Positions 9,235-36,540 of a stretch of 64,000 bases of DNA are shown here, piece by piece. The stretch covers positions 2,605-66,604 of the forward strand of contig CALWTF010000018.1 of NCBI GenBank assembly GCA_944384415.1, given 5' to 3'. Made by a program: the position numbers and the translations under genes. How positions within the stretch are numbered: position 1 is the stretch's first letter; each line of letters starts with the position of its first letter. Source of the stretch: an uncultured Clostridia bacterium (GTDB lineage Bacteria > Bacillota > Clostridia > Christensenellales > UBA1242). Under the pieces are notes generated by a model. It ran no database searches. It was given only the letters and a program-made list of their open reading frames with translations, and was not told where the DNA came from.

Positions 9235-9239
9235 ACATT

Positions 9240-9628: not shown

Positions 9629-9640
9629 AAACATATGTTC
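9629..9640. promoter_or_regulatory. Near-consensus LexA/Cheo-type box (GAACATATGTTT on the minus strand) upstream of the HTH regulator gene
   Basis: AAACATATGTTC at 9629-9640 differs at one position from the GAAC-N4-GTTC core. It lies ~65 nt upstream of the 9566 start. Confidence 0.3.
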
Positions 9641-9670
9641 TAATTTTTAATAATAAAAACAAGCATAATT

Positions 9671-10735: not shown

Positions 10736-10882
10736 ATTACTCCTTTAATAGTAAATTATGCCCAATTTTTATAAAATATTTTAAAAAGTTTATTAAAAAA
10801 GGAAATAATCTTTTTGATTTTTGTTGAAATTATGATAGAATAAAGTATATATTAGCAATTTTAAAAAGCGAGGTTTATTAAT

Positions 10883-12841: not shown

Positions 12842-12852
12842 GATAGGTGCTT

Positions 12853-15303: not shown

Positions 15304-15311
15304 ATTTGTTT

Positions 15312-15340
15312 AAAAAGAAGTTAAGAATAACTTCTTTTTT
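15312..15340 (+). terminator. Rho-independent terminator after parC
   Basis: GAAGTTA-agaa-TAACTTC stem, flanked by an A-run and a T-run. Confidence 0.75.
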
Positions 15341-15503
15341 ATTTTTAATATGTTCTAAAAACTGGCATTATTTCATAAAAATAAATAGGAGGCATAGTTT
15401 TCGACAAGAAACGATTTTTATTTAATTTTTATTCCAAAATATGTCGTTAATTTGCAACTATAATTTAAAAAAAATAAATTACAATTGGAGAGTAGTCCAA
15501 AAT

Positions 15504-16268: not shown

Positions 16269-16287
16269 AATAAACAGGAGAGTAAAA

Positions 16288-16983: not shown

Positions 16984-17083
16984 TTAAAAAGTTCAGGTGA
17001 AATTTGCTTGGACTTTTTTATTTTTTATTGCGATTGTTAAATTTTAATGTTATAATACCTAAAAAATAAAAGAAGAAAAGATT

Positions 17084-20106: not shown

Positions 20107-20139
20107 TTTTTTATCCTTATTTTTTAATTATAATTTAAA

Positions 20140-21975: not shown

Positions 21976-22109
21976 TTTAAACACCCCTTTGTTACAAGGG
22001 TATTATAGCAAATTTTGTTGAATAATCAAACACTTTAAAAGTAAATTTATTATTTTTGCTATTTATTTGTAAATGTGACAGACTTTGTCAGTTTAATTTG
22101 TTTAAAATA

Positions 22110-22123
22110 AGAACATATGTTCT
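22110..22123. promoter_or_regulatory. Perfect LexA/Cheo-type SOS box palindrome AGAACATATGTTCT in the divergent promoter region
   Basis: GAACATATGTTC (22111-22122) matches the Gram-positive LexA core GAAC-N4-GTTC, including the favoured ATAT centre. It overlaps the -35 position of a TATAAT at 22143-22148. It lies 183 nt upstream of the regulator ATG and ~135 nt upstream of the divergent SH3b gene. Confidence 0.55.
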
Positions 22124-22200
22124 AAAATTAAGAATAAAAAGTTATAATTTAGAACAAAATTATTTTTGTAAAATATTTTTCAAAAATGTGTCGCAAGGTA

Positions 22201-22305: not shown

Positions 22306-22872
22306 ATGGAGAAAAAAATTTGGGCAAAAACTGTTTTACAAGCTTATAATTATATTGGCAGGATTTGTAGAGTAATTGATAAACAGGTTTTGGAACGAAG
22401 TGCTATGTCGCATTTAAACTCATATGGTTATGATGATACTATTGCTATAACAGAAAGTGTGATAGATTTAATTGAAAGGAAAAAAGCACTTTTAATTTTA
22501 AAATTTATGGTAGAGGATAGCGTTCAGTTCTTAGATGATAATTTAAGAAAAGTTCTTGTTTTATTCTATTTTGATAGAAGAACTGTTGCTGAAATTTCCA
22601 CAATGATAAAAGTTAGTCCTAGAACCGTTAATAGAATTTTGGATAAAGCGATTTTAAAATGTTTTATGCAGTTTGAAAAAAATGGATTTAATATTGATTC
22701 TTTAAAAAAATATATATTAACTGAACCTTGGTTGGTTGGTATTTATAACTCGATTGTTGAAAAATCTAGAAGACCTGATTTAAAAATTTCTTCATCTTCA
22801 AAAAAGAAAATAAATTTATATAGTATAAATACAATTTATTCAAGTAGTGTTAAAAATTATCTTTATCGTTAA
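22306..22872 (+). CDS. Sigma-70 region-4-like transcriptional activator (phage late-gene activator type: RinA/ArpU/Xpf-like)
   Basis: LRKVLVLFYFDRRTVAEISTMIKVSPRTVNRILDKAILK is a classic sigma region 4.2 HTH. No region 2 is visible. It sits at the head of the packaging/structural genes. RBS AGGAG. Confidence 0.55.
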   Translation: MEKKIWAKTVLQAYNYIGRICRVIDKQVLERSAMSHLNSYGYDDTIAITESVIDLIERKKALLILKFMVEDSVQFLDDNLRKVLVLFYFDRRTVAEISTMIKVSPRTVNRILDKAILKCFMQFEKNGFNIDSLKKYILTEPWLVGIYNSIVEKSRRPDLKISSSSKKKINLYSINTIYSSSVKNYLYR

Positions 22873-23671
22873 ATTCTAAAAATTGTTCCTGATTTTGAGG
22901 TAAAAGATTTGAGTTGTTATAAAGCTTTGCTTTTTTTGCTTTTTTGTTTGGTTTAAAAAGTAGAATTAAAATCAACAAAGCAAATATAACCAGAATTGAA
23001 ATAATAATTATATTACTAGGTTTTTGAATTTCTGGAGCTAATATTTCTTGTATAGGTGTAGAATTTGCTGGTGTAGATTCACTTAAATTTTCATTATTTT
23101 CTGGAATGTTAGAAACTAATGTAGTTAATGGCGCATATATATATCCGGAAATGATACCTTGTTCAAAGCTTGTATAAGTGCAATAATACCATTCATTGCC
23201 TAAATTAGGTAAAGCATTTTGACCTGTTATTTTACCCCAAAATAAAATATTTTCAGCATTGAAAGGTATTGTACCAATATATTTTGATGTGTTGTTAGGT
23301 TGAGAAAATAAAACTGCGTTAGCAGTTCCATTAAGTTTAAAGGTAACATTATTTAAATATGGTTGTTGTGGTGTTCCGTTTACTTTTATTACTTCACTTT
23401 TTTTTACATATCCAATTAAATTATTATATTCTACTTTATAAAAATTTTCGTTTGAATTATCTATTAATTTTACAAAATAAGTTTGTGGTAATTCAAAATA
23501 AAGATTTTCATAATTTTCATCAATATTTGCTGTTCTGTAAAGAAAAGTATTTGATGATACAATTCTCAAATACTCACTAGAACTATCAGCACAAACGAAT
23601 GATAAATTGTTACTATAAATAGAAACTAAAAACAAAATAGAACATAACATAATAATTTTTAAATTGTTCAT
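22850..23671 (-). CDS. Secreted, C-terminally anchored protein with two SH3b-like repeats
   Basis: Signal peptide (IIMLCSILFLVSIYS). SH3b-like YKVEYNNLIGYVKKSEVIKV and GIISGYIYAPL. TM segment IIIISILVIFALLILILLF followed by KPNKKAKKAK. The 3' end overlaps the regulator 3' end by 23 nt (convergent). Confidence 0.55.
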   Translation of the reverse strand: MNNLKIIMLCSILFLVSIYSNNLSFVCADSSSEYLRIVSSNTFLYRTANIDENYENLYFELPQTYFVKLIDNSNENFYKVEYNNLIGYVKKSEVIKVNGTPQQPYLNNVTFKLNGTANAVLFSQPNNTSKYIGTIPFNAENILFWGKITGQNALPNLGNEWYYCTYTSFEQGIISGYIYAPLTTLVSNIPENNENLSESTPANSTPIQEILAPEIQKPSNIIIISILVIFALLILILLFKPNKKAKKAKLYNNSNLLPQNQEQFLEFNDKDNF

Positions 23672-23697
23672 ATTACACCTTTAACTAAATATTATCA

Positions 23698-23731
23698 AAC
23701 AATAATTGTATTTCTATTTGCAATTATTGTT
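23698..23731. repeat. Perfect 11-bp inverted repeat (AACAATAATTG-12 nt-CAATTATTGTT) in the divergent region upstream of terL
   Basis: Read directly: arms at 23698-23708 and 23721-23731, followed by a T-run. Candidate operator or weak AT-rich hairpin. Confidence 0.5.
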
Positions 23732-23808
23732 TTTTAATGCAAAAAATAAACATAAAAAAATATAAAATGTTTTATTTTTTCGATTACAACTTCAAAAAAG
23801 GAGATAAA

Positions 23809-25275
23809 ATGAATGAACTTAAAAATTTGGTTCAGCTTAATAAAATACAAAATGAAATACTATCAAGATTGAAAAAAGATAAAATAAAAATGTACAACAG
23901 TGGTAAAATTATTCATAAAAAACAAATAGAGTTTCATAAATGTTGTAAAAGAAATAGGTGGGTTTTTGGTGGAAATAGAAGTGGTAAAAGTCAATGTGGT
24001 GCTGCAGAAGTTGTATGGATAGCAAGAGGTAATCATCCTTATAAAAAAATAGAAAAAGCTACCGAAGGTTGGGTTGTTTCTTTGAGTCATCAAGTTCAAA
24101 GAGATGTTGCACAAGAAAAAATATTGTCTTTTTTAAATCCAGATTGGATTGACAAAATTGTTATGATTAACGGAAGAAGCGATTCTCCTATGAATGGTGT
24201 TATTGATTACATTTTAATAAAAAATATTTTTGGAACTTTAAGTAAAATTGCTTTTAAAAGTTGCGACCAAGGTCGAGAAAAATTTCAAGGTACAAGTTTG
24301 GATTATGTATGGTTTGATGAAGAACCTCCTTATGATATTTATTTAGAATGTAGAATGCGTGTGTTGGATAGATGTGGACAAATATTTGGAACTATGACAC
24401 CGCTTAAAGGTTTAACTTGGGTTTACAATGAAATTTACTTAAATGAAAAAAACGATTTAGAAGTTTGGTGTATTCATATGGAATGGGCTGATAATCCTTA
24501 TTTGAATAAAGAAGAATTGATTGCTCTTACAAATTCTTTAAGTTCTGAAGAGTTGGAAAGCAGAAGATATGGAAAGTTTGTGTGTAATAGTGGAATGGTT
24601 TATAGTGAATTTGATGTTAATGTTAATGTGGTTGAACCTTTTTCTGTTCCTCGCGAATGGTTTGATAATATTAGTATAGACCCTGGATTACATAATCCAT
24701 TAAGTGCTCATTGGTATGCTGTTGATTATGATGAAAACATTTGGGTTATAGCGGAACATTATGCAGCATCAAAAACTGTTGAATGGCACGCAAAAGAAAT
24801 TAGAAAAAAATGTGAAGAATTAAATTGGCCATTAAAAAATGGTATGGTTAATGCACTTATAGATTCTGCTGCAAACCAAAAAACATTATCTTCAACAAAA
24901 AGCGTTGCTGAATTATTTTATGAAAATGGAATAGCAGTTAATACAAAAGTAAATAAAGATTTGTTTTCTGGAATTTCAAGAGTAAAAAGTTTACTAAAAT
25001 CATCATCTGGTAGAAGTAAACTTTTTATTTTTTCAACTTGTGTAAATATGATTAGAGAGTTTAAAAGCTATTGGTGGTCTGATGCAGATGTTCCAGTAAA
25101 AAAAGATGACCATTCTCTTGATGAACTGCGTTATTATGTAATGTCTCGTCCTGAGGCTCCTAATCAAACCATTGTTAAAACCGAAGTACAAAAACATAAG
25201 GAGAAATTGATGGCTAAAAATTTTATTAACAAAAACAAATATTTAAGTAGATATAAGATTAATAAGGAGATTTGA
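23809..25275 (+). CDS. terL: Phage terminase large subunit
   Basis: Walker A FGGNRSGKSQCG, Walker B LDYVWFDEEP, and a C-terminal nuclease-type region ending DHSLDELRY. Start set at ATG 23809 behind AAGGAG. Confidence 0.85.
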   Translation: MNELKNLVQLNKIQNEILSRLKKDKIKMYNSGKIIHKKQIEFHKCCKRNRWVFGGNRSGKSQCGAAEVVWIARGNHPYKKIEKATEGWVVSLSHQVQRDVAQEKILSFLNPDWIDKIVMINGRSDSPMNGVIDYILIKNIFGTLSKIAFKSCDQGREKFQGTSLDYVWFDEEPPYDIYLECRMRVLDRCGQIFGTMTPLKGLTWVYNEIYLNEKNDLEVWCIHMEWADNPYLNKEELIALTNSLSSEELESRRYGKFVCNSGMVYSEFDVNVNVVEPFSVPREWFDNISIDPGLHNPLSAHWYAVDYDENIWVIAEHYAASKTVEWHAKEIRKKCEELNWPLKNGMVNALIDSAANQKTLSSTKSVAELFYENGIAVNTKVNKDLFSGISRVKSLLKSSSGRSKLFIFSTCVNMIREFKSYWWSDADVPVKKDDHSLDELRYYVMSRPEAPNQTIVKTEVQKHKEKLMAKNFINKNKYLSRYKINKEI

Positions 25276-25282
25276 TTTAAAA

Positions 25283-25594
25283 TTGGATAATAAAATTGAA
25301 AACAAAAAACTTGCAAAAGCGCTTTTTAAAAAAGCTATGGGTTATTCTGTTGATGAAACTACTGAGGAATTTTTAGTTGATGAAAACGGAAAATTGTTTT
25401 TACAAAAGAAAAAAGTTACAACTAAACATATTCCTCCTGATATACCAGCAGCGCGTGCTTTATTAGAATATTTTTTTCAAAGTGAAAAAGATGATTTATC
25501 AAAATTGACTGATGATGAATTGTATGCTGAAAAAGCAAGACTTTTAAAAGCTATAAAACAGACCGATGAGCAAATTTTAAAATATAGCGAATAA
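25283..25594 (+). CDS. Small phage protein, possibly a truncated small-terminase-like protein
   Basis: 103 aa with a TTG start. AMGYSVDE...KKKVTTKHIPPDIPAARALL resembles, from memory, the ...K.vPPD..A.. segment of some Firmicute-phage small terminases. I see no N-terminal HTH. Confidence 0.3.
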   Translation: MDNKIENKKLAKALFKKAMGYSVDETTEEFLVDENGKLFLQKKKVTTKHIPPDIPAARALLEYFFQSEKDDLSKLTDDELYAEKARLLKAIKQTDEQILKYSE

Positions 25595-25689
25595 AATGCG
25601 AAAAATATTTAATTAAAAATAAAAAAATATATAATTTATATCAATTAATTATTAAATATATAAAATATTTTTTAAATTTTGGAGGTAAA

Positions 25690-27600
25690 ATGCGTAAAAA
25701 TATAAAAACATCTAAACAAAAAACAAAAGAAGAAACAGTAAAGTTGTTGTGGGAGGATTTTAAAAAAAGGCAGGAAGAAAGAAAGCCTTTTGAAACTCAA
25801 TGGCAACTTAATTTAAATTTTTTATTAGGAAATCAATATTGTGATGTAAGTGCGGACCAAATAAAGAATGATTATGAAAAACAATTTTTTTGGGAAGAGC
25901 GTGGAGTTTTTAATCATATAGCTCCTTTGGTTGAAACAAGGATTTCAAAATTAACAAAAGTAAGACCTGTTATGACTGTTGTTCCAGCTAGTGGTGATGA
26001 AGATGATTTAGGTAGTGCTAAAGTTAGTAAAAATATTTTAGATTCAGTTCAAAATAAGTTGAATATACAAAACCTAATTTCTTCTGCAACAAAATGGAGT
26101 GAAGTTTGTGGAACATCATTTTATAAAGTTGTTTGGAATGATAAATCGGGACAAATAATTGGAATGGATTCTGATGGAACTAAAATTTATGAAGGAGAAG
26201 TTGATGTGATTGTATGTTCTCCTTTTGAGATATATCCTGACAGTAATACTGCTGAAGATATTTCACAATGTAAAAGTATTATTCATGCTAAATCATATGA
26301 TGCTGATATTGTTGAAAAACTGTGGAATGTTAAAGTTGAAGGTTGTGATATGGATACAATATCTTTATCTAATGTTCAACAAAATGGTGGTTTTTCAAGA
26401 AGTTTTAAAACTGCAAAAATATTTAAAACATTAAAACATAATCAGGTAATGGTTTTGGAAAAATATGAAACACCATCTAAAAAATATCCAAATGGAAGAA
26501 TGTTGGTTGTTGCTGGTGATAATTTAATTTATGATGGAGAATTACCATATAAAAATTTAAAAAATGGTGAGCGAGGTTTACCTTTTGTTAGACAGATTTC
26601 TGTTGAACAACCTTCATTGTTTTGGGGAACTAGTGTTATAGAAAGAATGATACCAGTTCAAAGAGCGTATAATGCGGTTAAAAATCGTAAACACGAATTT
26701 ATAAATAGATTAAGTATGGGAATTTTAACGGTTGAAGATGGCTCTGTTGATGTAGATGTTTTGGAAGAAGAAGGATTGTCGCCAGGCAAAGTTTTGGTTT
26801 ATAGGCAAGGTTCAGCAACTCCTAAAATGTTAACACTAGACAATGTTCCAAGCAATTTTAGTGAAGAAGAAATTAGGTTGCAAAATGAATTTGAAAATAT
26901 AAGCGGAATAACAGATTTCTTTAATTCTTCATCAATAAATTTAGATAATTTGAGTGGTGTTGCTTTGGAATTAATTATTGAACAAGAAGATGCAAGAATT
27001 TCTTCAACTGGTGAAAGTATAAATTTTGCTGTTAAAAATATTTCACAACAGATTTTAAGATTATACAAACAATTTGCTGTTTATGAAAGAATGGGGCGAA
27101 TTGTTGGTAAAAATGGAAAAAGTGAATTTTTCTTTTGGAATAGAAGTGATATAACATCAGATGATATAGTGTTTGATACTGAGACTGAAGTTGGTCGTTC
27201 AATAGCGCAAAAAAGAACAATGATATTAGACCTTTTAAAATTGGGCATACTTGCAGATGAAAATGGAAAATTAACAAATTCAATGCGTAATAAAATATTG
27301 CAACTTTTAGGTTTTGGAATTTGGGAAGATGCATTAGATGAGCGTGAAATTCAAATTCAGAATGCAAGAAATGAAAATGTAAAATTTGCAACGAATGAAG
27401 ATGTTGAGGTTTTAGAAATTCATAATCATGACTTACACATACAAACCCACATTAGTTATATGTTAAGTGGTGATTTTGAAAAAGATTGTTCGCGCGATGT
27501 TTTGTTAAAAGAAAAAATGTTGGAACACATAAGAGAGCATAAAAGATTTAAAAAACTTGAAATCGAGTCAGAAAAACAATTGATAAATAATGAGGTGTAA
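25690..27600 (+). CDS. Phage portal protein (large, 636 aa)
   Basis: Sits between terL and the scaffold/MCP genes. N-terminal ...FETQWQLNLNFLLGNQY... is the portal-like W..N..F..GNQ pattern. Strong RBS GGAGG. Confidence 0.65.
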   Translation: MRKNIKTSKQKTKEETVKLLWEDFKKRQEERKPFETQWQLNLNFLLGNQYCDVSADQIKNDYEKQFFWEERGVFNHIAPLVETRISKLTKVRPVMTVVPASGDEDDLGSAKVSKNILDSVQNKLNIQNLISSATKWSEVCGTSFYKVVWNDKSGQIIGMDSDGTKIYEGEVDVIVCSPFEIYPDSNTAEDISQCKSIIHAKSYDADIVEKLWNVKVEGCDMDTISLSNVQQNGGFSRSFKTAKIFKTLKHNQVMVLEKYETPSKKYPNGRMLVVAGDNLIYDGELPYKNLKNGERGLPFVRQISVEQPSLFWGTSVIERMIPVQRAYNAVKNRKHEFINRLSMGILTVEDGSVDVDVLEEEGLSPGKVLVYRQGSATPKMLTLDNVPSNFSEEEIRLQNEFENISGITDFFNSSSINLDNLSGVALELIIEQEDARISSTGESINFAVKNISQQILRLYKQFAVYERMGRIVGKNGKSEFFFWNRSDITSDDIVFDTETEVGRSIAQKRTMILDLLKLGILADENGKLTNSMRNKILQLLGFGIWEDALDEREIQIQNARNENVKFATNEDVEVLEIHNHDLHIQTHISYMLSGDFEKDCSRDVLLKEKMLEHIREHKRFKKLEIESEKQLINNEV

Positions 27601-27601
27601 T

Positions 27602-28225
27602 ATGGAAGAAATAAAAGAAGGGGAACAACCTTTATTAAATGATGAAGGCTCCCCTGTAGGTAAGTTTAAAGATGTTGAAAGTTTAAAAATAGCATATGAA
27701 AATTTAGAAAAAGAATTTACAAAGAAAAGTCAAACTCTTTCGAATTTGCAAAAAAATTTTAAAAAAAATGAAAAAAACGATAACTTTATATCGACTTTTT
27801 CAAACAATTTGGAAAAGTCGATAAAAATTTGGGAGCAAGACGATTGGGATAATCAGGTTGAAAATTTTTTAAAAAATAATCCTAAAGCTAAAAATTTTTC
27901 AAAAGAAATTTGTGATTTGATTGTAAAAGATAAGGTTGTGCAAGAATCTTCTCAACCCCTTTTAACTGCTTGGACTAAATATTTAGAAAACAATTTTAAA
28001 TCTGATGATGAGTTTATAAATGATGAGAATAATTTTTTATCTATAACTCAAAATGAAAAAGTTAAAAAGGCTATTATAAAAGAATATCTTTCAGACTTGA
28101 AAAAACATGATTTTATTCCTCCTGTTTTTTCAAAAAATGATGGTAGTGGAATTTCGGAAACGAAACCATATTCACCAAAAACTTTAGAAGAAGCAAAGGA
28201 ATTAGTTAAACAAATTTTTAAATAA
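27602..28225 (+). CDS. Putative capsid scaffolding protein
   Basis: ~207-aa, acidic/lysine-rich, apparently helical protein located between the portal and major capsid genes. No protease motifs. Start at ATG 27602 behind GAGGTG; 27590 is an alternative. Confidence 0.45.
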   Translation: MEEIKEGEQPLLNDEGSPVGKFKDVESLKIAYENLEKEFTKKSQTLSNLQKNFKKNEKNDNFISTFSNNLEKSIKIWEQDDWDNQVENFLKNNPKAKNFSKEICDLIVKDKVVQESSQPLLTAWTKYLENNFKSDDEFINDENNFLSITQNEKVKKAIIKEYLSDLKKHDFIPPVFSKNDGSGISETKPYSPKTLEEAKELVKQIFK

Positions 28226-28236
28226 GGGAGATATAT

Positions 28237-29418
28237 ATGGTTACAATGACAACTGCCCAAAATGCATTAAAAGATATTTATTTAGATGTTGTAGCTAATC
28301 AACTTAATACACAAACTAATGCGTTATATAATCAAATAAAAAATTCTAATGCAGATGTTTATGGGCGTGAAGTACAAAAACTTGCACCATATGGAATTAA
28401 CGGTGGTGTTGGTGCTGGTGATGAGGGAGGAGTTCTTCCTAAATCGGCAGAAAATAAATATGTTCTTTTTACAAGTTCATTAAAAAATTTATTTGGTACT
28501 ATAGAGATTTCAGATAAAGCTATTCGTGCATCTGCTGATGATGCTGGTGCTTTTGTAAATTTATTAAATGCAGAAATGGAAGGATTGTTACAAGCTAGCA
28601 AATTTAATTTAGGTCGTATGTTATATGGAAATGGTTCAGGTTTGTTGGCTAGTATTTCTTCTGCATCAAGTACTACTAATTTAATAACTTGTAATAATGT
28701 TCAAAATTTAATTGAGGGTATGCTTATTGATATTTATTCAAGCTCTGGAACTCAAATTTCTGATTTTACTGGAATTAGAATTTTAAAAATAGATAGAAAT
28801 AATAAAACTATTCAAGTTTCAAAAAATATAACATCAACTTTTCAATCAGCTGCATCTGGGGCGCAAATATATGTTCAAAACAGTAAAGATAGTGAAATTT
28901 CTGGATTGGGTAAAGTGTTTGAAACAAGTGGTTCAATTTACGGTTTAAGTAGAACTTTATATCCATGGCTTAATAGTTATCAAAAAGAAAAAACCTCATC
29001 TGAAACTTTTAATGAGATTTATTTACAAACAGCTATTGATGAGGTTTCGTTAAGAACGGGAAATGATATTAATTTTTTAGTTACTACATCTGCTGTTAAA
29101 AGAAAATTTGCTTCAACATTATTATCAAATTCTAGAAATATAGATACTACAAACTTAAATGGTGGTTATCAATCATTATCATATAATGGTATACCATTGG
29201 TTAGTGATAGATTTGTTCCAGATGGAACTATGTATTTACTTAATACAAATGATTTTGTTATGCATCAGCTTTGTGATTGGGAGTGGTTGTGTAATGAAGA
29301 TGGTTCAATTTTAAAACAAAAGGAAGGATATGCAAGATATTTTGCTACATTGGTTAAATATGCCGAGTTAGTTTGTAATAAACCAGGCAGTCAATGTATG
29401 TTAACAAAACTTGCATAA
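28237..29418 (+). CDS. Major capsid protein, paralog 1
   Basis: 393 aa with RBS AAGGGAG. Position and size fit an HK97-fold MCP. Strongly similar to the next ORF at both termini. Confidence 0.65.
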   Translation: MVTMTTAQNALKDIYLDVVANQLNTQTNALYNQIKNSNADVYGREVQKLAPYGINGGVGAGDEGGVLPKSAENKYVLFTSSLKNLFGTIEISDKAIRASADDAGAFVNLLNAEMEGLLQASKFNLGRMLYGNGSGLLASISSASSTTNLITCNNVQNLIEGMLIDIYSSSGTQISDFTGIRILKIDRNNKTIQVSKNITSTFQSAASGAQIYVQNSKDSEISGLGKVFETSGSIYGLSRTLYPWLNSYQKEKTSSETFNEIYLQTAIDEVSLRTGNDINFLVTTSAVKRKFASTLLSNSRNIDTTNLNGGYQSLSYNGIPLVSDRFVPDGTMYLLNTNDFVMHQLCDWEWLCNEDGSILKQKEGYARYFATLVKYAELVCNKPGSQCMLTKLA

Positions 29419-29429
29419 AAGGAGGATTT

Positions 29430-30590
29430 ATGGTTACTTTATCAACAGCTAATGAGGCTTTAAAAACAATGTATTTAGATGTAGTTGCTAATCAACTTAA
29501 TACTAACACTCATCCATTTTTAGCAAAAATTGAAAAAACAAGTGTTGATGTTGTTGGAAAAAATGTTAAAAAATTGGTTCCTTATGGAGTTAATGGTGGT
29601 GTTGGTGCTGGAACTGAAACAGGAAGTTTACCTTCTAGTGGATATAATAATTATGTTTTGTTTACATCAACTTTAAAAAATTTGTATGGAACAATTGAAA
29701 TATCAGACAAAGCACTTCGTGCATCTTCTAATGAAGCTGGTGCGTTTGTTAATTTGCTTAATGCCGAAATTGAAGGTATGTTAAGTGCAAGCAGATTCAA
29801 TATGAGTAGAATGCTATATGGTAATGGAAGTGGTTTGCTTACAACTGGTGTTGCAACTAGTAGTGGTGGATACACTTTTACGGCTGAAAGCTTAAACAAT
29901 TTAATGGTAGGTATGAGTGTTGATATTTATGTAAATTCAGTTTTCTCACACACAGCAAGAATTTTAAGCTGGGATTATGAATTAAACACATTAACTTTTG
30001 ATGTTGCTGCAACTGCAGATATGGCTGATGAAGATAATGTAGTTTCTTTATATTTACAAGGAAGTAAAGACAAAGAAATTACTGGATTAGGTGCAATTTT
30101 TGGTGGTTCAAATTTGTATGGTTTGAATGTTTCTGACTATGAATTTTTAAAGCCAACAACAAAAACTGTTACATCTTCTAATTTTAGTATTTCATCATTA
30201 ATGGAAGTAATAGATGAACTTGATGAACAAAAAGGCGCAAAAATTAATTTTATAACTGGGTCATTTGATGCAAGAAGGAAATATCAATCTTTAATAGCTA
30301 GTTCAAAACTTAATTTAGATGTTATGAATTTGGAAGGTGGATATAAAGCTATTAGCTTTAATGGTATTCCATTTATAACAGATAGATTTGTTGAAAGTTG
30401 TGAGATTTATATGTTGAATAGTGATGATTTTAAACTTCATCAACTTTGTGATTGGGAATGGATTTCAAATGATAAAGGGCAGATTTTAAAACAAAAAGAA
30501 GGTTATCCAATACATACAGCAACTTTGGTTAAATATGCTGAACTGATTTGTGATAAACCAGGTGGTCAAGGTAAATTGACAATATCTTAA
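29430..30590 (+). CDS. Major capsid protein, paralog 2
   Basis: 386 aa from ATG 29430 behind AAGGAGG. Shares YLDVVANQLNT, NGGVGAG, GTIEISDKA, AGAFVNLLNAE, RMLYGNGSGLL, HQLCDWEW, ILKQKEGY and ATLVKYAEL with paralog 1. Confidence 0.65.
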   Translation: MVTLSTANEALKTMYLDVVANQLNTNTHPFLAKIEKTSVDVVGKNVKKLVPYGVNGGVGAGTETGSLPSSGYNNYVLFTSTLKNLYGTIEISDKALRASSNEAGAFVNLLNAEIEGMLSASRFNMSRMLYGNGSGLLTTGVATSSGGYTFTAESLNNLMVGMSVDIYVNSVFSHTARILSWDYELNTLTFDVAATADMADEDNVVSLYLQGSKDKEITGLGAIFGGSNLYGLNVSDYEFLKPTTKTVTSSNFSISSLMEVIDELDEQKGAKINFITGSFDARRKYQSLIASSKLNLDVMNLEGGYKAISFNGIPFITDRFVESCEIYMLNSDDFKLHQLCDWEWISNDKGQILKQKEGYPIHTATLVKYAELICDKPGGQGKLTIS

Positions 30591-30596
30591 CAAATG

Positions 30597-30627
30597 GGTG
30601 AGCTAAATATAGCTCACCTTTGTTTTT
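30597..30627 (+). terminator. Strong rho-independent terminator immediately after the second capsid gene
   Basis: GGTGAGCT-aaatat-AGCTCACC followed by TTTGTTTTT. Confidence 0.8.
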
Positions 30628-30642
30628 AAAAGGATAAATATA

Positions 30643-31020
30643 ATGTTAATAAAAATTTTAAGAGATGTTTTTGATATTGTGGAAAGAATTAAACAAATTG
30701 ATAGTGGATATTTTATTTGTTTTAATTTAAAGAAAAACAGGTATGAAGTTCATAATTATAAACAAGCAAATACATTTTGTTTGGTTGTTCCTTATAAAAA
30801 TTTAGATGCTAGAACTTTAAGTTTTGTTAGAAAAACAAAAAGAGAAAATTTTAAAAAACTTATTGCCGAAATAGATGAAAATAATAAAAAAATTGAAAAT
30901 GAGGCTTTAAGAGTAATAAAAGATAAATCTGAATGGAAGTTAAAAGAAATGTTTTCTTTTGCTAATCACCGAGAAGGTGATGTTAGTTTTAATGATGCCT
31001 ATTCAACAAAATGGGCTTAA
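30643..31020 (+). CDS. Hypothetical phage protein (125 aa)
   Basis: Good ORF in the structural operon; no motif recognised. The position suggests a head-completion or adaptor role. Confidence 0.4.
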   Translation: MLIKILRDVFDIVERIKQIDSGYFICFNLKKNRYEVHNYKQANTFCLVVPYKNLDARTLSFVRKTKRENFKKLIAEIDENNKKIENEALRVIKDKSEWKLKEMFSFANHREGDVSFNDAYSTKWA

Positions 31021-31032
31021 AAGGAGATAGTA

Positions 31033-31599
31033 ATGACTGTTTTAGATGTTTTAAAAATAACATGTAGAAATTTAGGACTTGAGGAATTTTTAAGTTTAAC
31101 AGAATTTGGCGGTAATGAGGTTGCAACTGATGAACAAGCTTTACAAATTGAGCAATTAATTGCTTGCGTTAATGATGTGAATCAGTCAATAGCATATATG
31201 TATTTGCCTTTGAAAACAATAGAAAACATAACTATTAATAATAAAAAATTTGAATATTCAAAATTTGCTAAAACATTAATAGAAATTTTATGGATAAAAA
31301 ATGCTTCAGGCTTAAAACAAAAACATACATGTTTTCCAACATTTCTAAGTTGTGAAAACGGTAGTTATACGGTTAATTATACATACGCACCTAGTTTTGT
31401 AAACAATGTAAATGATGTTTTAGATGTTCATTTTAAAATAGATGCAAGAACTATGGCTTATGGTGTTACATCTAGATATTATTTATTAAAAGGACTTTTT
31501 TCAGAAGCAAATGCTTGGGATATTAGATTTCAGCAATCTTTACTTGTGGCTTCTAGGCGTAATTCTAATATTAGAATGTATGACAGGGGGTGGTTATAA
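31033..31599 (+). CDS. Hypothetical virion protein (188 aa), adaptor / tail-tubular-A-like by position
   Basis: RBS AAGGAG. Its stop overlaps the next start (TAATG). Size and position are analogous to T7 gp11; no sequence motif is claimed. Confidence 0.4.
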   Translation: MTVLDVLKITCRNLGLEEFLSLTEFGGNEVATDEQALQIEQLIACVNDVNQSIAYMYLPLKTIENITINNKKFEYSKFAKTLIEILWIKNASGLKQKHTCFPTFLSCENGSYTVNYTYAPSFVNNVNDVLDVHFKIDARTMAYGVTSRYYLLKGLFSEANAWDIRFQQSLLVASRRNSNIRMYDRGWL

Positions 31600-33116
31600 T
31601 GTTTTATAATGATATACTTCCGGTTAGTAATCAAACAATTTTAAAAGTTAAGTTATCTAATTTTTCTTCAGGATTAAATACAAAAATTGAACAAAATATT
31701 TTACCTTTAAATGTTGCAACTTTGTCATACAACTTTGATTTTAATTCAGGGGCGTTAGTTCAAGGAATGGGTTTTAAGGAATTAACTATTGATGCTTATA
31801 CTGAAACTGAAAGCGGGGATAAACTGTATTTTGGAGAAAAAAACCTTAATGTTCCTAGCACTGTTTCTGAGGTGAAAGCTGTATATGTTTTTAGAAGGCA
31901 TCAACAGGAAAGATATAGTCCGCTTTTATTAATTTTTGCTGATAGTTATCTATATTACACATTATTTATGACTACACTAACTGAATTTATAAAAGTAAAC
32001 AATTATACATTTGAAAAAACACCGATTGGAATTAATATGTATTTTTCTGATGATTATAGAATGGTTTTTTGTAGTCAAGCAACTAATGATTCACTTTCAA
32101 GTGTAGATGGTTATATGAATTTGGTTAGATATAATACTGCTCCTAAATTTTTTTCTCTTGCCGAACATGCAGGAAGATTGTTTGCCGTTGTTGGAAAAGA
32201 AAAAGATGAGCTTTGGTTTTCTGATGACACTAATCCTTGTAATTGGGTTCCTGAAGTGTTTAATGGTGGTTACATAAAAGTGGTTGATGAAAGAGGTTGT
32301 ATTAATAACTTAATATCTCACAATAATTACTTATATTTGATAAGAGATTATGGAATTTCAAGATTATCGGGATTTGGTGATGAAACTGAGTTTGTAATAA
32401 AAAATTTATCATTATCTAATTCGCAAATATATGGTAAAACTGCAACTTTATGTGGTGATTATATTTTTATGTTGTGTAAAGATGGTATATACAATTTTGA
32501 TGGTTTAAATATTAATAAAATAAATTTGGGGTTTGAAAGTTTATTGGAAAATGCGCCAAACCAAAATGCTGTTGGTGCTTTTTTAGATGGTAAATATTAT
32601 GTTGCTTGTAGATTAAATTTTAAAGATAATGAAACTGTAGGCAGTGAAATTAATGAAGATAGCAAAAACAATTGCTTGATTGAATATGATATAAATTCTG
32701 GTGAATATTCAATTTTAAGAGGGGTAAATATCTGTAATTTAACTGCAATACAGTTTGAAACAATTCACAAGATTGTGGCTTGTTTTGCATCTGATTATAA
32801 AAATAAACTTGGTGAACTAACACACGATGGCTTGATTTTTGGTACTCCTACTAAAAAAGTGTGGAGTTCTCCTCAAACCGATTTGGGTTATCCTGATAAA
32901 ATTAAGGTATTAAAAAATTTTTATATAAACACTCAAGAAGATATTATATTAAAAATTAAAGCTGATGATACAACTCATACATATAAAATTAAAGGAAGTT
33001 CAAAACCAAGAAGATTAGCAACCGCTTTAAGAGCTAGTATTTTTAAAATTGACATAATTTCGGAAACTGCAAATTGTAATATATCTAATCCACAAATAGA
33101 AATCGCTTTGGTATAG
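31599..33116 (+). CDS. Hypothetical virion protein (505 aa), beta-propeller-like; nozzle / tail-tubular-B-like by position
   Basis: RBS GGGGGTGG. Blade-like motifs recur every ~40-50 aa (GRLFAVVGKEKDELWFSD, NYLYLIRDYGISRLSG, GDYIFMLCKDGIYNFDG, DGKYYVACR). Confidence 0.4.
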   Translation: MFYNDILPVSNQTILKVKLSNFSSGLNTKIEQNILPLNVATLSYNFDFNSGALVQGMGFKELTIDAYTETESGDKLYFGEKNLNVPSTVSEVKAVYVFRRHQQERYSPLLLIFADSYLYYTLFMTTLTEFIKVNNYTFEKTPIGINMYFSDDYRMVFCSQATNDSLSSVDGYMNLVRYNTAPKFFSLAEHAGRLFAVVGKEKDELWFSDDTNPCNWVPEVFNGGYIKVVDERGCINNLISHNNYLYLIRDYGISRLSGFGDETEFVIKNLSLSNSQIYGKTATLCGDYIFMLCKDGIYNFDGLNINKINLGFESLLENAPNQNAVGAFLDGKYYVACRLNFKDNETVGSEINEDSKNNCLIEYDINSGEYSILRGVNICNLTAIQFETIHKIVACFASDYKNKLGELTHDGLIFGTPTKKVWSSPQTDLGYPDKIKVLKNFYINTQEDIILKIKADDTTHTYKIKGSSKPRRLATALRASIFKIDIISETANCNISNPQIEIALV

Positions 33117-33124
33117 GTGATGGT

Positions 33125-34942
33125 ATGAATGATAATTTTAATAACAAATGGGGAAAAGAAGCTTACCTTTTGATTGAAGAGTTAGAAGAAAAAATTGAAG
33201 CTTTAAAAAACCTTTATTCTACATTAAAAAATACAATTGCAGATTGTAATGTTGATATTGAAACAATTAATGCAAATTGGTTATCTTTAAATAATGATAT
33301 TAGTGGTTTGGAAGCTGATGTTCAAATTATTCAAAATTCGTTAAACGATGTTGATAGTGACTATCAAGAGTTATTAACTTCCATTGAAAATATTAATGAA
33401 GATGTTAATACGATACAAAACAAGTTAACAACTGTTCAAGATGATATAACCAACTTAAATAATGAGTTGCAAGATGTTGAAAATTTACAAACTTTTAAAA
33501 ACATAAATTGTATAGATAATGAACTTAAAAGTATTCATACATATCAGGAAATAAATACTTTTTACAATATAGATGCCAGAATGACAGCTGATTCAACATA
33601 TAAAATAGTTAGTTTTAAATCTGATAAGGAATTTCCTACAAAAATTTATGTAACATTTTCTGCTAGGGCATATGTGCAAGGAGTTTATGGAAGTGCAAGA
33701 TTGGATTTTTATATAGATTCAAATTTAATATACTCAAAAGAAGTTTATTGTGAAGATGAAGAAGAGTTGTATTCGTTTGAATTTGATTTCTTTCCAACGG
33801 GTGAAAAACAAGATTTTAAAATGAAAATGACACATTTAAACCAGGTTTCGGGAACAAATGTTAGAATATGTATGCAATATATTCGGATAAAAATGTGTGG
33901 AAAAAGATGTTTTTTTTATGAAAATGAAGGTGGAATTATTGCATATGATTATCAAAACTCAAAAAGTATTGGTGTAGGCACTGCTTCAGTTTATCATTTT
34001 GGAAATTTTTGTAGATATTTGCGTTTATGGGAGCACGATGCTATAACCAAAAAATTGAAAGATTGGAACACTTCTGATTATAATGCAGTATCAAATGCTT
34101 CAATACCAACTTCGGGATTTATTGCTAATAAAAAAATTTGTATTAACAGATGTATAAAAGATGATGGAAGCCTTTTTTATGGTTTGAACTTTTATTATGT
34201 TACTGATTTAGGTGCTGTACAGGTTTTGTGGTTTAATGTTTATAATAAGGGTGATAAAATGAGTTGGTCTTTGGCATCAACATTAGGTATGGTGTCTATA
34301 ATTGCACCTGTTGAATTTAATAATTATGAAAATTTAATAAGTTACGGTTATAACTTAGGTGCAACAAGACGACCAAATCACACATTTTCTATGATATTAT
34401 TTTATAAAACTTATACTGATGGAGTATGGAAAACTGCATTAATTACAGATTATAGATACGCTACCGAAATTGCTTTGGTTTCAATACCAGAAACGGTAGG
34501 GAATGTTGTAGATGTTTTTACAACCTTTAACATTGGTAATAATTCACAACAATTTAGTTGTTTACCAATATTTTTAAATGATGATGACGATATTTATATT
34601 GTTCCATACAATTTGGATAAAACTAAAATATGTTTGAGTTCCGATGTTGAGTATTCGTTGCCAGAAAATTATTATTTAGTTCCAGTTGAAAATGAAACTT
34701 TCCCATTGTATGTAGGAAAAGGAATTAATCCATTTGCTTGTTACAAAGAAGATGGACAACTATATATCTATTATTCGTATATAAACAGAATTTACGAACG
34801 GATTTTTAATTTTACAAACAATAAGTTAAGTTTGCCAAGGTTTGTTTGTGATGGGCAATGGTATAGTGAAGGTGAGTTCGCTTATAATGTAAGAAAAAAT
34901 GGGGTTATGCACAGTGTATCAAAATGCGACATACAAAAGTAG
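33125..34942 (+). CDS. Tail fibre / receptor-binding-like protein (605 aa)
   Basis: The N-terminal ~120 aa form a heptad-like coiled coil (EELEEKIEALKNLYSTLKN..., VNTIQNKLTTVQDDITNLNNELQDVENLQ). An aromatic-rich, beta-looking C-terminal part follows. Confidence 0.4.
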   Translation: MNDNFNNKWGKEAYLLIEELEEKIEALKNLYSTLKNTIADCNVDIETINANWLSLNNDISGLEADVQIIQNSLNDVDSDYQELLTSIENINEDVNTIQNKLTTVQDDITNLNNELQDVENLQTFKNINCIDNELKSIHTYQEINTFYNIDARMTADSTYKIVSFKSDKEFPTKIYVTFSARAYVQGVYGSARLDFYIDSNLIYSKEVYCEDEEELYSFEFDFFPTGEKQDFKMKMTHLNQVSGTNVRICMQYIRIKMCGKRCFFYENEGGIIAYDYQNSKSIGVGTASVYHFGNFCRYLRLWEHDAITKKLKDWNTSDYNAVSNASIPTSGFIANKKICINRCIKDDGSLFYGLNFYYVTDLGAVQVLWFNVYNKGDKMSWSLASTLGMVSIIAPVEFNNYENLISYGYNLGATRRPNHTFSMILFYKTYTDGVWKTALITDYRYATEIALVSIPETVGNVVDVFTTFNIGNNSQQFSCLPIFLNDDDDIYIVPYNLDKTKICLSSDVEYSLPENYYLVPVENETFPLYVGKGINPFACYKEDGQLYIYYSYINRIYERIFNFTNNKLSLPRFVCDGQWYSEGEFAYNVRKNGVMHSVSKCDIQK

Positions 34943-35009
34943 AAATTTTATAACTTATTTTCTACATCAAAAAAAATATACAAATTATTTATATAATGGA
35001 GGAGCTTTT

Positions 35010-35822
35010 ATGGCACAAAAGTATAAAATTGAAAATATTACTAATAGTAATGTTAAAACTTCGTTGCCTGAAACTGTTCAAAATAAATTCAAGGAAATAG
35101 ATGAAAAATTTTCAGGTGAAGAACAAATTTGGAATGAAAGAAAAAACTATTATGATACAATTACAGATGTTGCAAAAGTTAAAGCAGAACAAAATTTGCA
35201 AGATTATAAAACACAAAATTTAAACAATATTGAAAGTGAATATCAACAAGATTTAAGAAATTTCAATTCTAATAAAACAGATGAAAAAAATAAATTGCTT
35301 TCACAGAAACAAGGTTTAGTTGATTCGGCTGAAAAAACAAAAGCTGATTTAAAACAACAAGCTTTAGAAAGTGGTTGGAGATATTCAAGTATATATGAAA
35401 ATGGATTAAAAGAGATTGATTCTAATTTACAAAAAGAAACTGAAATGTTAAAAGAAGACTTTTATGTTCAACAAAATATTTATAATTTAAAAAAGACATT
35501 ATTGGAAACTGAAAAAGAAAATGCTTTATCAAATTTTGATATTGCATATGCAAATAAACTAGAAAAAGAAATTCAAAATATAACAAAAGAAATGCAAAAT
35601 TCAGAAGAGATGCCATATTCTTTAAAAGATATTGAACAACAATTAAGTGACATTTCTAATCAAAAGCAAACTCAAAAGGCTCAAACATTGTTTAATTATG
35701 TTGGAAGTTTGAGCAAACAAGATGCACTAAACTTTTTAAATGATGAACAAAATTCTTTAAAAAACGAAGTGGGTCAAGATTGGTACAATAGCATTGTTAA
35801 CTGGATAAAGGTAAATAAATAA
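35010..35822 (+). CDS. Hypothetical all-helical Q/K/E/N-rich phage protein (270 aa)
   Basis: Start at ATG 35010 behind GGAGGAG. The upstream part of the track ORF overlaps the previous gene. No motif recognised. Confidence 0.4.
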   Translation: MAQKYKIENITNSNVKTSLPETVQNKFKEIDEKFSGEEQIWNERKNYYDTITDVAKVKAEQNLQDYKTQNLNNIESEYQQDLRNFNSNKTDEKNKLLSQKQGLVDSAEKTKADLKQQALESGWRYSSIYENGLKEIDSNLQKETEMLKEDFYVQQNIYNLKKTLLETEKENALSNFDIAYANKLEKEIQNITKEMQNSEEMPYSLKDIEQQLSDISNQKQTQKAQTLFNYVGSLSKQDALNFLNDEQNSLKNEVGQDWYNSIVNWIKVNK

Positions 35823-35823
35823 A

Positions 35824-36072
35824 ATGTTTGAACAAGCAATTGAAATGGCTATTTCTAATGGGATTTGGGCTGTTATGTTTTTAAGTTTATTAATATATTT
35901 GTTAAAAGACAGTTCAAAACGAGAAAAAAAATATATGTTGCTTGTAGACAATTTGACTCATAAATATGGTTTGCTTAAAAAAATTGACAAAGAATTAAGT
36001 GTTGTAAGTGCAAATGTTTTAACTATTAAAACATTATGTTTTGTAAAAAAGGAGGCTGCTAGTGCTTATTAA
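35824..36072 (+). CDS. BhlA/UviB/XhlA-type holin-like peptide
   Basis: 82 aa. MFEQAIEMAISNGIWAVMFLSLLIYLLKDSSKREKKY matches the family pattern: one N-terminal TM segment (..QG.FAVLF..LLFY..K) followed by a charged helical tail. Confidence 0.6.
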   Translation: MFEQAIEMAISNGIWAVMFLSLLIYLLKDSSKREKKYMLLVDNLTHKYGLLKKIDKELSVVSANVLTIKTLCFVKKEAASAY

Positions 36073-36376
36073 TTTTTTAGCTCAAATAAAAAGCTACAGT
36101 TTCTGGCTTTCTTTGGCAAGTGCCTGTTTATTGTTATTACAAGCGGTGGGTAAGCCTTTGGGGTTAGAAATAAATGAAGAAGTTTATATGTCTATAATAA
36201 ATGGTATTTTAGGAATTTTTGTTGTTCTAGGTATTGTTACATATCCTAATGTTGAACAAAATCAAGATAAAGATGATAATATAGATGTTGAGCAAGATAT
36301 TAACAAAAAAGATAACTTAAATGAACAACAATCAGAAAATTTATGTGATAATGAAAACATAAAAAACTTTGAATAG
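36062..36376 (+). CDS. Two-TM phage holin (XhlB/BhlB-like)
   Basis: GTG start behind AAGGAGG. TM1 FWLSLASACLLLLQAVGKPLGLEINEEV resembles the XhlB ...LGKSPLDIQEEQV segment. TM2 is INGILGIFVVLGIV. The tail is acidic. Confidence 0.5.
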   Translation: MLINFLAQIKSYSFWLSLASACLLLLQAVGKPLGLEINEEVYMSIINGILGIFVVLGIVTYPNVEQNQDKDDNIDVEQDINKKDNLNEQQSENLCDNENIKNFE

Positions 36377-36400
36377 AATTATAGTTACATATTTTAAATA

Positions 36401-36430
36401 AAAAAAGAGGTTGAAAAAACCTCTTTTTTT
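36401..36430 (+). terminator. Rho-independent terminator closing the phage-like block
   Basis: A-run, GAGGTT-gaaaa-AACCTC stem, then TTTTTTT. Confidence 0.8.
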
Positions 36431-36540
36431 ATTTAACTTGGAGTTGACAAAAATTTTTATGTGTGTTAAACTTTTATTCAACAGTAATTAGATAAAAACA
36501 ATATAAAGTAACTTTCCATTAAGTTTGTACAATAATTTGT

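Follow-up and report, generated by a model that had tools for sequence, protein, structure and literature searches.

A Chromosomally Fixed Cluster of Podovirus-Type Particle Genes in Uncultured Clostridia: A Probable Gene Transfer Agent-Like Element

Introduction

What kind of element is a compact set of phage head, tail and lysis genes that lies between housekeeping genes of a bacterial chromosome? The question is raised by a stretch of 64,000 nucleotides from an uncultured Clostridia bacterium (Christensenellales, UBA1242; GenBank assembly GCA_944384415.1, contig CALWTF010000018.1, positions 2,605 to 66,604), which as a whole is called the window in this work. A block of about 14 kb (positions 22306–36376) carries on the + strand genes for a phage head, a short tail and host lysis, and a first-pass annotation, made without database searches, had proposed that it encodes a domesticated phage-like particle. 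The analysis reported here indicates that the block is probably a chromosomally fixed, phage-derived particle gene set, that is, a gene transfer agent (GTA)-like element or "viriform", of P22/SU10-like descent and vertically inherited in a large clade of uncultured low-GC Clostridia (Christensenellales and relatives). To our knowledge, genetically defined GTAs number only a handful, and the only Gram-positive GTA-like systems described are PBSX of Bacillus subtilis and FpGTA of Faecalibacterium prausnitzii.

Results and Discussion

Gene Content of the Block

All open reading frames (ORFs) of the block were scanned against the Pfam, PHROGs and NCBIfam collections. The one-strand cluster of the first-pass annotation was recovered with its ORFs, family matches and terminators, and its inventory needed one addition, a minus-strand gene for a 273-amino-acid (aa) SH3 protein that had been missed. 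In an identical public contig the genes are called as proteins of 188, 488, 103, 636, 207, 393, 386, 125, 188 and 505 aa. In the three collections no block ORF matched an integrase, recombinase, polymerase, primase or repressor family, a prohead protease, tape-measure, sheath, tube or peptidoglycan-hydrolase family, or an AlpA-type regulator or replicase, in agreement with the earlier statement that integration, replication, lysogeny, protease, tape-measure and hydrolase genes are lacking. Neither tRNA genes nor att-like flanking direct repeats were found in the window. The block is therefore, as concluded earlier, neither an autonomous phage nor a mobile prophage. Structural and packaging genes that are borne on the chromosome without replication, integration or lysogeny genes are a mark of GTAs and viriforms, and this is the gene content found here.

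The G+C content is about 28% across the whole window and the composition is unbroken at the block, as had been noted before. The remaining window consists of housekeeping genes, among them obg, murG, gyrB, gyrA, ssb, a U32 gene, the RNase J gene, plsX, rnc, smc, ftsY, lepA, hrcA-grpE-dnaK-dnaJ and rsmE. A search for near-identical DNA among 50,697 phage records gave no match.

Chromosomal Sites and Split Modules

With the portal protein as query and one genome per GTDB species, relatives were found in at least 160 species-representative genomes. The best 80 of these 160 are all metagenome-assembled genomes (MAGs) of uncultured Clostridia, classified as Christensenellales or Eubacteriales and derived from guts, rumen and digesters, and their portals are 44–64% identical to that of the window. 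In protein databases (E ≤ 1e-5, clusters at 90% identity) the portal matched at least 5758 clusters and the large terminase (TerL) at least 4811, nearly all of them unnamed.

When the window proteins were mapped onto the loci of the relatives (labelled L001 and so on), two conserved chromosomal contexts were found. In the group of the window the left side is formed by gyrA, a polysaccharide deacetylase gene (pda) and ssb and, further on, by a minus-strand gene for a 614-aa protein, the regulator gene SIG, the minus-strand SH3 gene, TerL and a gene for a small-terminase-like (TerS-like) protein; the right side comprises the portal, scaffold and major capsid protein (MCP) genes and, further on, the nozzle gene, fibre genes where present, the holin genes, membrane protein genes and the RNase J gene. 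Relatives with as little as 45% portal identity still have this arrangement. The larger group has a module of 7.5 kb, made up of TerS-like gene, small ORF, portal, scaffold, one MCP, the genes for proteins of 125 and 188 aa (p125 and p188), nozzle and a pair of holin genes, which is placed between an ABC transporter gene, 3′ of hrcA-grpE-dnaK-dnaJ-rsmE, and comEC-holA-der. Of the 49 loci in which the upstream sequence extends for 9 kb or more, 33 have no TerL within 10 kb.

Two such TerL genes were located. At L081 the trio of SIG, SH3 gene (9067–9753, minus strand) and TerL lies between groEL and hrcA-grpE-dnaK; judged from synteny, it is parted from the portal module by the heat-shock operon together with further host genes. 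At L083 (SH3 gene at 9081–9884, minus strand) a single contig carries both TerL and the portal gene at a distance of 7 kb, and the intervening genes encode DUF421, DUF4363 and pyruvate phosphate dikinase. Three more loci have inserts of 2.5–3 kb between TerL and the TerS-like gene, two of which encode a protein of the 750-aa class, one with surface-repeat motifs. A phage that excises as a unit, replicates itself and packages itself could not tolerate modules split by host genes in this way. The core genes are present and of full length in 58–66 of the 67 loci that cover them.

A metagenome scan anchored on ssb, and hence not biased towards the element, found the element beside ssb in the close relatives L167 and L169. 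In distant relatives the element was not within 10 kb of ssb, and many species carry it elsewhere.

In the second group the genes comEC (Competence, DUF4131), holA and der follow directly 3′ of the holin genes (L048, 17156–21586, and equivalent loci). As a rule, Firmicutes have comEC-holA and lepA-hrcA-dnaK next to each other. The comEC adjacency was discounted as evidence of a functional link to DNA uptake, being probably ancestral Firmicute synteny.

Selection and Vertical Inheritance

The ratio of nonsynonymous to synonymous substitution rates (dN/dS) was calculated by the Nei–Gojobori method for species pairs with 85–98% identical portals. It was 0.01–0.06 for the portal, 0.03–0.11 for the MCP, 0.04–0.05 for TerL, 0.04–0.12 for the nozzle, 0.08–0.19 for p188 and 0.01–0.29 for the holins, with 0.01–0.05 for the flanking DnaK and DnaJ; dS was similar between the element and the flanking genes. 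For the 19 species whose dnaJ adjoins the module, the identity of portals between species was correlated with that of DnaJ (Mantel r = 0.75; none of 2000 permutations was as high), and mean identities were 77% for DnaJ, 73% for the portal, 83% for the MCP and 51% for the nozzle. The cluster is vertically inherited, is under purifying selection and co-diverges with its host.

The relatives thus bear out the proposal of domestication: the same sites are occupied across species by intact ORFs under purifying selection that co-diverge with the host, no att repeats are found in the window and, in part of the relatives, housekeeping genes split the set. The exception, locus L183, from which the element is absent, is treated below with the alternative explanations.

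Packaging and Head Genes

The TerL gene (23737–25275, + strand; likely start at 23809, giving 488 aa) matched Terminase_6N (2e-12) and phrog_2 (2.5e-28), and no other gene of the set is conserved so well, as identity remains at 64–78% in the top 120 of the at least 4811 clusters. The 103-aa protein that follows (25283–25594, +), which the first-pass annotation had left unnamed, is TerS-like by its family match to phrog_309 (terminase small subunit): 35 of 40 family members match this profile, and the match shown covers profile positions ~195–238 of 319. TerS proteins usually bind DNA through their N-terminal part. By the extent of its alignment, the 103-aa protein appears to be a truncated TerS-like protein without this part.

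The 636-aa portal (25690–27600, +) is of the P22/SU10 type, with matches to PF16510 (1.6e-24) and phrog_156 (1.6e-36) and also to PF23899, which is shared with P22/SU10-type phages. The next protein (27590–28225, +; 211 aa, 207 as called) had been described as scaffold-like. No significant Pfam, PHROG or NCBIfam match and no match to the Prp family was obtained for it; as in related phages, its gene is flanked by those of portal and MCP, and the sequence is charged and helical-looking.

Two MCP paralogs follow, the first of 393 aa (28237–29418, +; NF033394 3.5e-67, phrog_14242 5e-57) and the second at 29394–30590 (+; called start 29430, 386 aa). Both belong to phrog_14242 and, with scores of 227 and 236 bits (cutoff 80), to NF033394, capsid_maj_Podo. 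At E ≤ 0.1 NF033394 was the sole NCBIfam match of either protein, and N4-gp56 was not matched. The paralogs are 52% identical at the amino acid level with a spacing of 1193 nt, and the tandem duplication is confined to the loci of the nine closest species (L001–L008, L010), the other species having a single MCP. In T4, gp23 and gp24 are capsid proteins with divided roles; a similar division of labour between the two copies is a matter of speculation. A tblastn search of phages with the MCP gave only four distant, actinophage-type matches of 22–28% identity, and single-protein searches of the PDB gave a weak match for the portal alone and nothing useful for MCP or nozzle.

Downstream of the second MCP lies an intrinsic terminator (30596–30619; 10-bp stem with five GC pairs and a T-run), the pattern of which is matched on both strands. 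It is followed by the gene of p125, a conserved virion-module protein (30643–31020, +) found in 58 of the 67 covering loci; a homologue of 36–40% identity is also located 3′ of the MCP gene in phage-like contigs.

Tail and Lysis Genes

The 505–508-aa protein encoded at 31590–33116 (+) was modelled with AlphaFold2 (AF2) from an alignment of 67 homologues (pLDDT 90.6, pTM 0.90). Foldseek matched the model to the tail protein of Pseudomonas phage Pa223 (E 1e-20, TM score 0.71) and to Vibrio phage VP1 (TM score 0.69), and further to SU10, GP4, P22 gp10, PhiM1 and T7 gp12, all best matches being podovirus tail proteins. The family profile in addition matched the SU10 tail-structure chain 7z47_G (E 3.5e-4). 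The protein is thus assigned, by a confident structure match, as a podovirus tail nozzle or tail-hub. A polymerase, integrase or terminal protein among the large ORFs, which would have told against the particle reading, was not detected.

The p188 gene (31033–31599, +), found in 66 of the 67 loci, directly precedes and overlaps the nozzle gene, and its product is a putative head-to-tail adaptor by position; a pair of 214 and 514 aa has the same arrangement in Microbacterium phage Shocker. The p188 profile gave no match in the PDB, hhalign comparisons of p188 and the nozzle protein (p508) with Shocker gp32 and gp33 were not significant, and the AF2 model of p188 from the single sequence, without alignment, reached a pLDDT of 33. 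The short tail suggested earlier is accordingly borne out by the nozzle structure and by the P22/SU10/Podo-type portal and MCP, with the 188-aa adaptor a positional call. Taken together, a P22/SU10-like virion module is present, with a P22-type portal, a Podo-type MCP of HK97 fold and a beta-propeller nozzle or tail-hub.

The protein p605 (33125–34942, +) gave coiled-coil matches only. Its N-terminus is trimeric-coiled-coil-like, its C-terminus is beta-rich and a polymerase signal was not seen. Identity of p605 is 21–27% between species whose portals are about 60–64% identical to that of the window, and the protein is absent from most related clusters. The fast divergence, the coiled-coil and beta make-up and the frequent absence fit a putative needle, fibre or receptor-binding protein and do not fit a polymerase. 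The following ORF, described before with 270 aa, can be read as 307 aa (p307; 34899–35822, +) and encodes a DUF7934 protein (PF25588 2.5e-7), a variable accessory protein present in 13 loci. Profiles of p307 and p605 retrieved nothing specific from the PDB.

The lysis genes encode a BhlA/UviB-type holin-like protein (35824–36072, +; Holin_BhlA PF10960 2e-13) and a Phage_holin_1 holin (36062–36376, +; PF04531 6e-7, phrog_297 3e-10). A terminator-like hairpin with a T-run (36405–36432, +), read from the sequence and not listed by the terminator pattern scan, closes the cluster.

Regulator, Promoters and the Nested SH3 Gene

The first gene of the block, SIG (22306–22872, +), encodes a 188-aa protein with a sigma-region-4-type helix-turn-helix (HTH) domain (Sigma70_r4 PF04545 4e-7), and its family profile matches region 4 of SigF (E = 1.2e-5). 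Region 4 (residues ~66–125) was the only sigma region detected, with about 65 residues after it; region 2 was not found. Against the Xpf model NF005385 the protein scored 17.2 bits with a cutoff of 136, region 4 alone aligning, and it scores far below the sigma-family cutoffs. Because only region 4 is recognized and the scores fall so far below the Xpf and sigma cutoffs, SIG is better termed a sigma-region-4-type HTH protein and putative late activator than a demonstrated sigma factor. SIG is linked to TerL in every context found.

Promoter P1 of SIG (22086–22128, +) comprises a TGTCAGT element (22086–22092), the palindrome GAACATATGTTC (22111–22122) and a −10-like TAAAAT. The palindrome lies in the P1 spacer, about 195 nt upstream of the SIG start, and matches the core of the Gram-positive LexA (Cheo) box. 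Motifs of the type GAAC-N4-GTTC number two in the 64-kb window with 0.30 expected. Six related species have the palindrome GAACATATGTTC between −177 and −195, a seventh has it at −317, and L007 carries the form GAACAAATGTTC; overall, a LexA-box-like site is present at −172 to −195 of SIG in L001–L004, L007–L009, L011 and L013, with one-mismatch versions in three more species, and it is usually the sole such motif per 20-kb locus. A LexA-box-like palindrome in its promoter predicts SOS control of SIG.

The second promoter, P2 (22201–22230, +), is nearer to the gene and has the form TTGACA-18-TAAAAT (11 of 12 consensus positions); it is preceded by a conserved TGTGTCGC/TGTGTCAC element, and its −35 TTGACA is invariant across the alignment (A8). 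In 46 of 50 stand-alone portal modules (for example L036, ~9400–9480) a sequence of the type TG(G/T)CAGT-N5-nTTGaaa-N18-TATAAT is located before the TerS-like gene. The upstream element TG(G/T)CAGT is thus common to the stand-alone portal module and to the LexA-box-bearing promoter P1 of SIG, which suggests one regulon; a small regulon switched on by SIG would be the simplest reading. An interpretation of TGGCAG-N-TTG as a sigma-54 promoter was rejected, as the spacing is off by one, TGTCAG is present in several loci and a normal TTGaaa-N18-TATAAT follows.

Just 5′ of TerL a hairpin with a U-run (23697–23738, +; dG −16.3 kcal/mol, z −5.9) is a candidate terminator, attenuator or antitermination point between SIG and TerL. 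In nine species its 3′ arm and T-run are invariant, and the 5′ arm shows A-to-G changes at three positions, each opposite U, as would be anticipated if the + strand RNA formed a terminator or attenuator. As these substitutions are G-U compatible on the + strand only, an RNA hairpin is favoured and a protein operator at this palindrome is less likely.

Genes that are dispersed among host genes and placed under host-type regulation also characterize GTAs; the split modules and the predicted LexA-box-like operator are of this kind.

The gene missed by the first-pass annotation (22850–23671, minus strand) encodes a putatively secreted SH3b-domain protein of 273 aa with a signal peptide, SH3b-like domains and a C-terminal transmembrane helix. 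It is nested antisense between SIG and TerL, in convergent overlap with the 3′ end of SIG, and the trio is kept in all contexts, including L081 and L083. A receptor, a wall-binding factor or a device of transcriptional interference may be envisaged, which is speculation. On the same strand, between the U32 gene and SIG, two ORFs of 223 and 614 aa without family match were observed (19435–21984). Beyond the closest relatives, in which it is about 28% identical, the 614-aa ORF is not conserved; it has a short SH3-like stretch in common with the nested SH3 protein.

Phage Relatives and Viral Catalogues

A profile scan of IMG/VR matched 157 contigs. Most of those that were long enough for mapping (at least 12 kb) are pieces of host chromosome in which ssb, gyrA, pda or RNase J flank the element as they do in the window. 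Among the IMG/VR loci L089–L165, many (for example L093, L094, L097 and L115) are host chromosome carrying the element, that is, false-positive "viruses".

Five IMG/VR contigs of 35–65 kb (L138, L141, L144, L145, L146) are phage-like and have portal, MCP and p125 in common with the cluster at 36–43% identity. In the nearest phage-like contigs TerL belongs to another PHROG (phrog_3717), and L141 encodes a 1394-aa tail fibre and, in the nozzle position, a protein matching phrog_511. These contigs probably represent living relatives, or the ancestral phage lineage, of the element, judged from the genes in common.

The portal, the MCP (phrog_14242) and the nozzle fold of P22/SU10-type podoviruses and Shocker-type phages match those of the cluster, and their order of TerL, small protein, portal, scaffold and MCP and, further on, adaptor and nozzle is that of the cluster. 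Unlike the cluster, these are replicating phages, and their genomes of 35–78 kb also encode large fibres, internal virion proteins, lysins and replication functions.

Comparison with Known Systems

Of the systems described so far, FpGTA, published in 2026 (Nat Commun, PMC12946183), comes closest, and with it the first-pass statement that no described GTA-like element of such make-up was known in low-GC Firmicutes no longer holds, although the gene families differ. FpGTA is a chromosomal 10.5-kb operon of a Gram-positive gut anaerobe, near-ubiquitous in its genus and devoid of integrase and replication genes, with the order TerS-like gene, TerL (Terminase_6-type), portal, small protein, MCP and conserved hypotheticals (PMC12946183). 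The particles are about 40 nm in size, tail-less or short-tailed, and contain 8.4–8.9 kb of random host DNA; the TerS candidate is without a DNA-binding domain, a feature cited there for RcGTA also (PMC12946183).

Gene order, podovirus-like tail and holin lysis are alike in FpGTA and in the cluster, the latter being known from its genes alone. By annotation and gene order the FpGTA operon I (RCH50844–RCH50852) was set apart from it. The FpGTA MCP is annotated as N4-gp56 family, whereas the MCPs of the cluster are NF033394 capsid_maj_Podo. FpGTA has a Prp-like gene between portal and MCP, and the cluster has no Prp domain; the fibre, holin and endolysin genes of FpGTA are in a second operon 125 kb away, whereas the holins of the cluster are encoded in cis. 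The host order differs, and neither a LexA box nor a sigma-region-4 regulator is described for FpGTA, the cluster having such a regulator and a LexA-box-like site. With another capsid family and without a Prp-like gene, the cluster looks like a domestication separate from FpGTA, which is likely but not proven.

GTA-like packaging was also reported for Christensenellales-type MAGs (6.3 kb in QANA01, 4.1 and 7.1 kb in HGM11616, 4.9 kb in UBA11524), and the genes responsible were not identified there (PMC12946183). It is tentatively proposed, at somewhat less than even confidence, that the cluster is the genetic basis of this packaging of 4–7 kb host fragments from Christensenellales in human stool viromes and represents an independent, order-wide domestication of a P22/SU10-like podovirus with a circuit not known from any other GTA. 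This circuit would consist of a LexA-gated SIG, the TG(G/T)CAGT element, the hairpin before TerL and the antisense-nested SH3b gene. If the 4–7 kb packaging stems from the element, its heads hold less than the 11–14 kb needed to encode the particle, as a GTA requires. This is the opposite direction to the first-pass argument, which had taken MCPs of ~390 aa to build heads for more than 14 kb and has been dropped, since the FpGTA capsids, interpreted as T = 3, hold about 8.5 kb (PMC12946183).

A second likeness, that of the control and lysis logic to PBSX, had been suggested for the block before. PBSX is a DNA-damage-inducible element of ~28 kb with a contractile tail (sheath, tube and tape measure), a sigma-like late activator upstream of the terminase, holin-type lysis together with the amidase XlyA, and control through an Xre repressor; it packages host DNA and not the whole element. 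The predicted DNA-damage control, the putative late activator upstream of TerL and the holins of the cluster are PBSX-like. Unlike PBSX, the cluster has no contractile-tail families, no lysin, a LexA-box-like operator and a regulator that is not of the Xpf family, so that the suggested likeness stood for the predicted damage control and the holins and failed for the regulator family.

With the RcGTA-type GTAs of Alphaproteobacteria (reviewed in PMC5721377) the cluster has an evolutionary signature in common, the gene families being unrelated and the phylum different. These GTAs are vertically inherited under purifying selection, their genes are spread over several loci, host regulation controls them together with lysis genes, a link to LexA has been reported, and their TerS is without sequence-specific DNA binding; RcGTA itself is siphovirus-like, with a prohead protease, a tape measure and an HK97-type head module. 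A small sigma-type regulator combined with BhlA/UviB- or holin-type release is also known from UviA/UviB-BCN5 of C. perfringens and TcdR/TcdE of C. difficile, the regulatory logic of which resembles that of the cluster, but these systems export toxins or bacteriocins and not capsids.

Alternative Explanations

The genes of the cluster are compatible with gene transfer, with killing or with another function. The strongest rival of the GTA-like element accepts domestication and holds that selection acts on killing or altruistic lysis, as for PBSX, or on another capsid function, packaging being a by-product. SOS-type control and holins do resemble PBSX and UV-inducible bacteriocin systems, and the putative receptor-binding proteins p605 and p307 evolve very fast or are missing from the cluster in most species, as are the specificity determinants of tailocins. 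For FpGTA a killer, altruistic-lysis or other capsid function was likewise left possible (PMC12946183). PBSX-type killing, on the other hand, is a matter of a contractile tail, and none is encoded in the cluster. TerL moreover is the most conserved protein of the set (64–78% identity in the top 120 clusters; dN/dS 0.04–0.05), which argues that DNA packaging itself is under selection. This explanation is regarded as unlikely, with some weight left to it.

A cryptic, decaying prophage remnant without current function is very improbable. The lack of integration, replication and lysin modules would suit a remnant, and so would locus L183, an empty or deleted site. On the contrary, the ORFs are intact in nearly all of the 67 covering loci from different species, dN/dS, at 0.01–0.2, is comparable to that of DnaK and DnaJ, the site is conserved to 45% portal identity, and the promoters and operator-like sites are conserved.

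Still less probable is a mobile satellite, such as a capsid-forming island resembling phage-inducible chromosomal islands (PICI-like), or a helper-dependent small integrated phage. The cluster is compact, consists mainly of head genes and has fragments listed as viral in IMG/VR. It nevertheless encodes its own tail nozzle and occupies fixed sites, with housekeeping genes between the modules in relatives; the searches described above gave no integrase, no primase or replicase, no AlpA-type regulator, and neither att repeats nor a tRNA target, and the mapped IMG/VR contigs (≥12 kb) mostly have host flanks. An autonomous minimal phage, for example a protein-primed, phi29-like podovirus, fits superficially with ~14 kb and short-tail parts and can be practically dismissed, as neither DNA polymerase B nor a terminal protein was detected in the cluster, p605, the sole large ORF left without assignment, is coiled coil plus beta structure with no polymerase signal, and the cluster is embedded in the chromosome at syntenic sites.

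Several points weigh against the GTA-like element itself. No endolysin is encoded in the cluster; the missing phage modules and an endolysin, for which a search of the rest of the genome had been recommended, were absent from the 64-kb window also. Locus L183 (PPCM01000005.1, an 899-kb contig, positions 10000–17500) has the backbone without SIG and without the TerL-to-holin block. Its order is gyrB-gyrA-pda-ssb, minus-strand genes for proteins of 270 and 623 aa and an SH3 homologue (13487–14242, minus strand), followed by the genes of a 296-aa protein with weak similarity to the first downstream membrane protein of the window, RNase J, an O-methyltransferase and U32. At the expected TerL start a 28-codon ORF resembles TerL N-termini and has a terminator directly after it, which suggests, and does not prove, a deletion scar. 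The element is accordingly not indispensable, and the SH3 gene can persist alone. The genes of active phages are also under purifying selection, so that the case for domestication rests on synteny, split modules and co-divergence. Position is the basis on which the 211-aa protein is called a putative scaffold, p188 a putative adaptor of the T7 gp11/P22 gp4 type and p605 a putative fibre, and p307 is placed by its DUF7934 match only. The packaging events of PMC12946183 are tied to the cluster by circumstantial evidence.

Proposed Mode of Action

For the GTA-like element we infer SOS induction, an activator role of SIG, non-specific packaging, particle release and DNA delivery. Upon DNA damage LexA would leave its box in the SIG promoter and SIG would accumulate, possibly acting also on its own TG(G/T)CAGT-bearing promoter. 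SIG would then turn on the TG(G/T)CAGT promoters, while the terminator-like hairpin would gate transcription into TerL. Portal, scaffold and capsid proteins would form small heads, into which TerL and the TerS-like protein, lacking its N-terminal part, would package host DNA by a headful mechanism without sequence preference. Adaptor, nozzle and fibre or needle would complete a short tail, and the particles would be released by the two holins together with a wall hydrolase of the host or encoded at a distance.

Conclusions

The cluster is found in at least 160 species of abundant uncultured Clostridia of gut and rumen, and would provide a concrete gene set for capsid-mediated gene flow among them. 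It also accounts for host chromosome fragments that are labelled as viruses in viral catalogues. The LexA-box-like site, the common promoter element and the hairpin before TerL offer regulatory handles on the system. If the cluster is, as it appears, a domestication separate from that of FpGTA, short-tailed phages have been domesticated at least twice.

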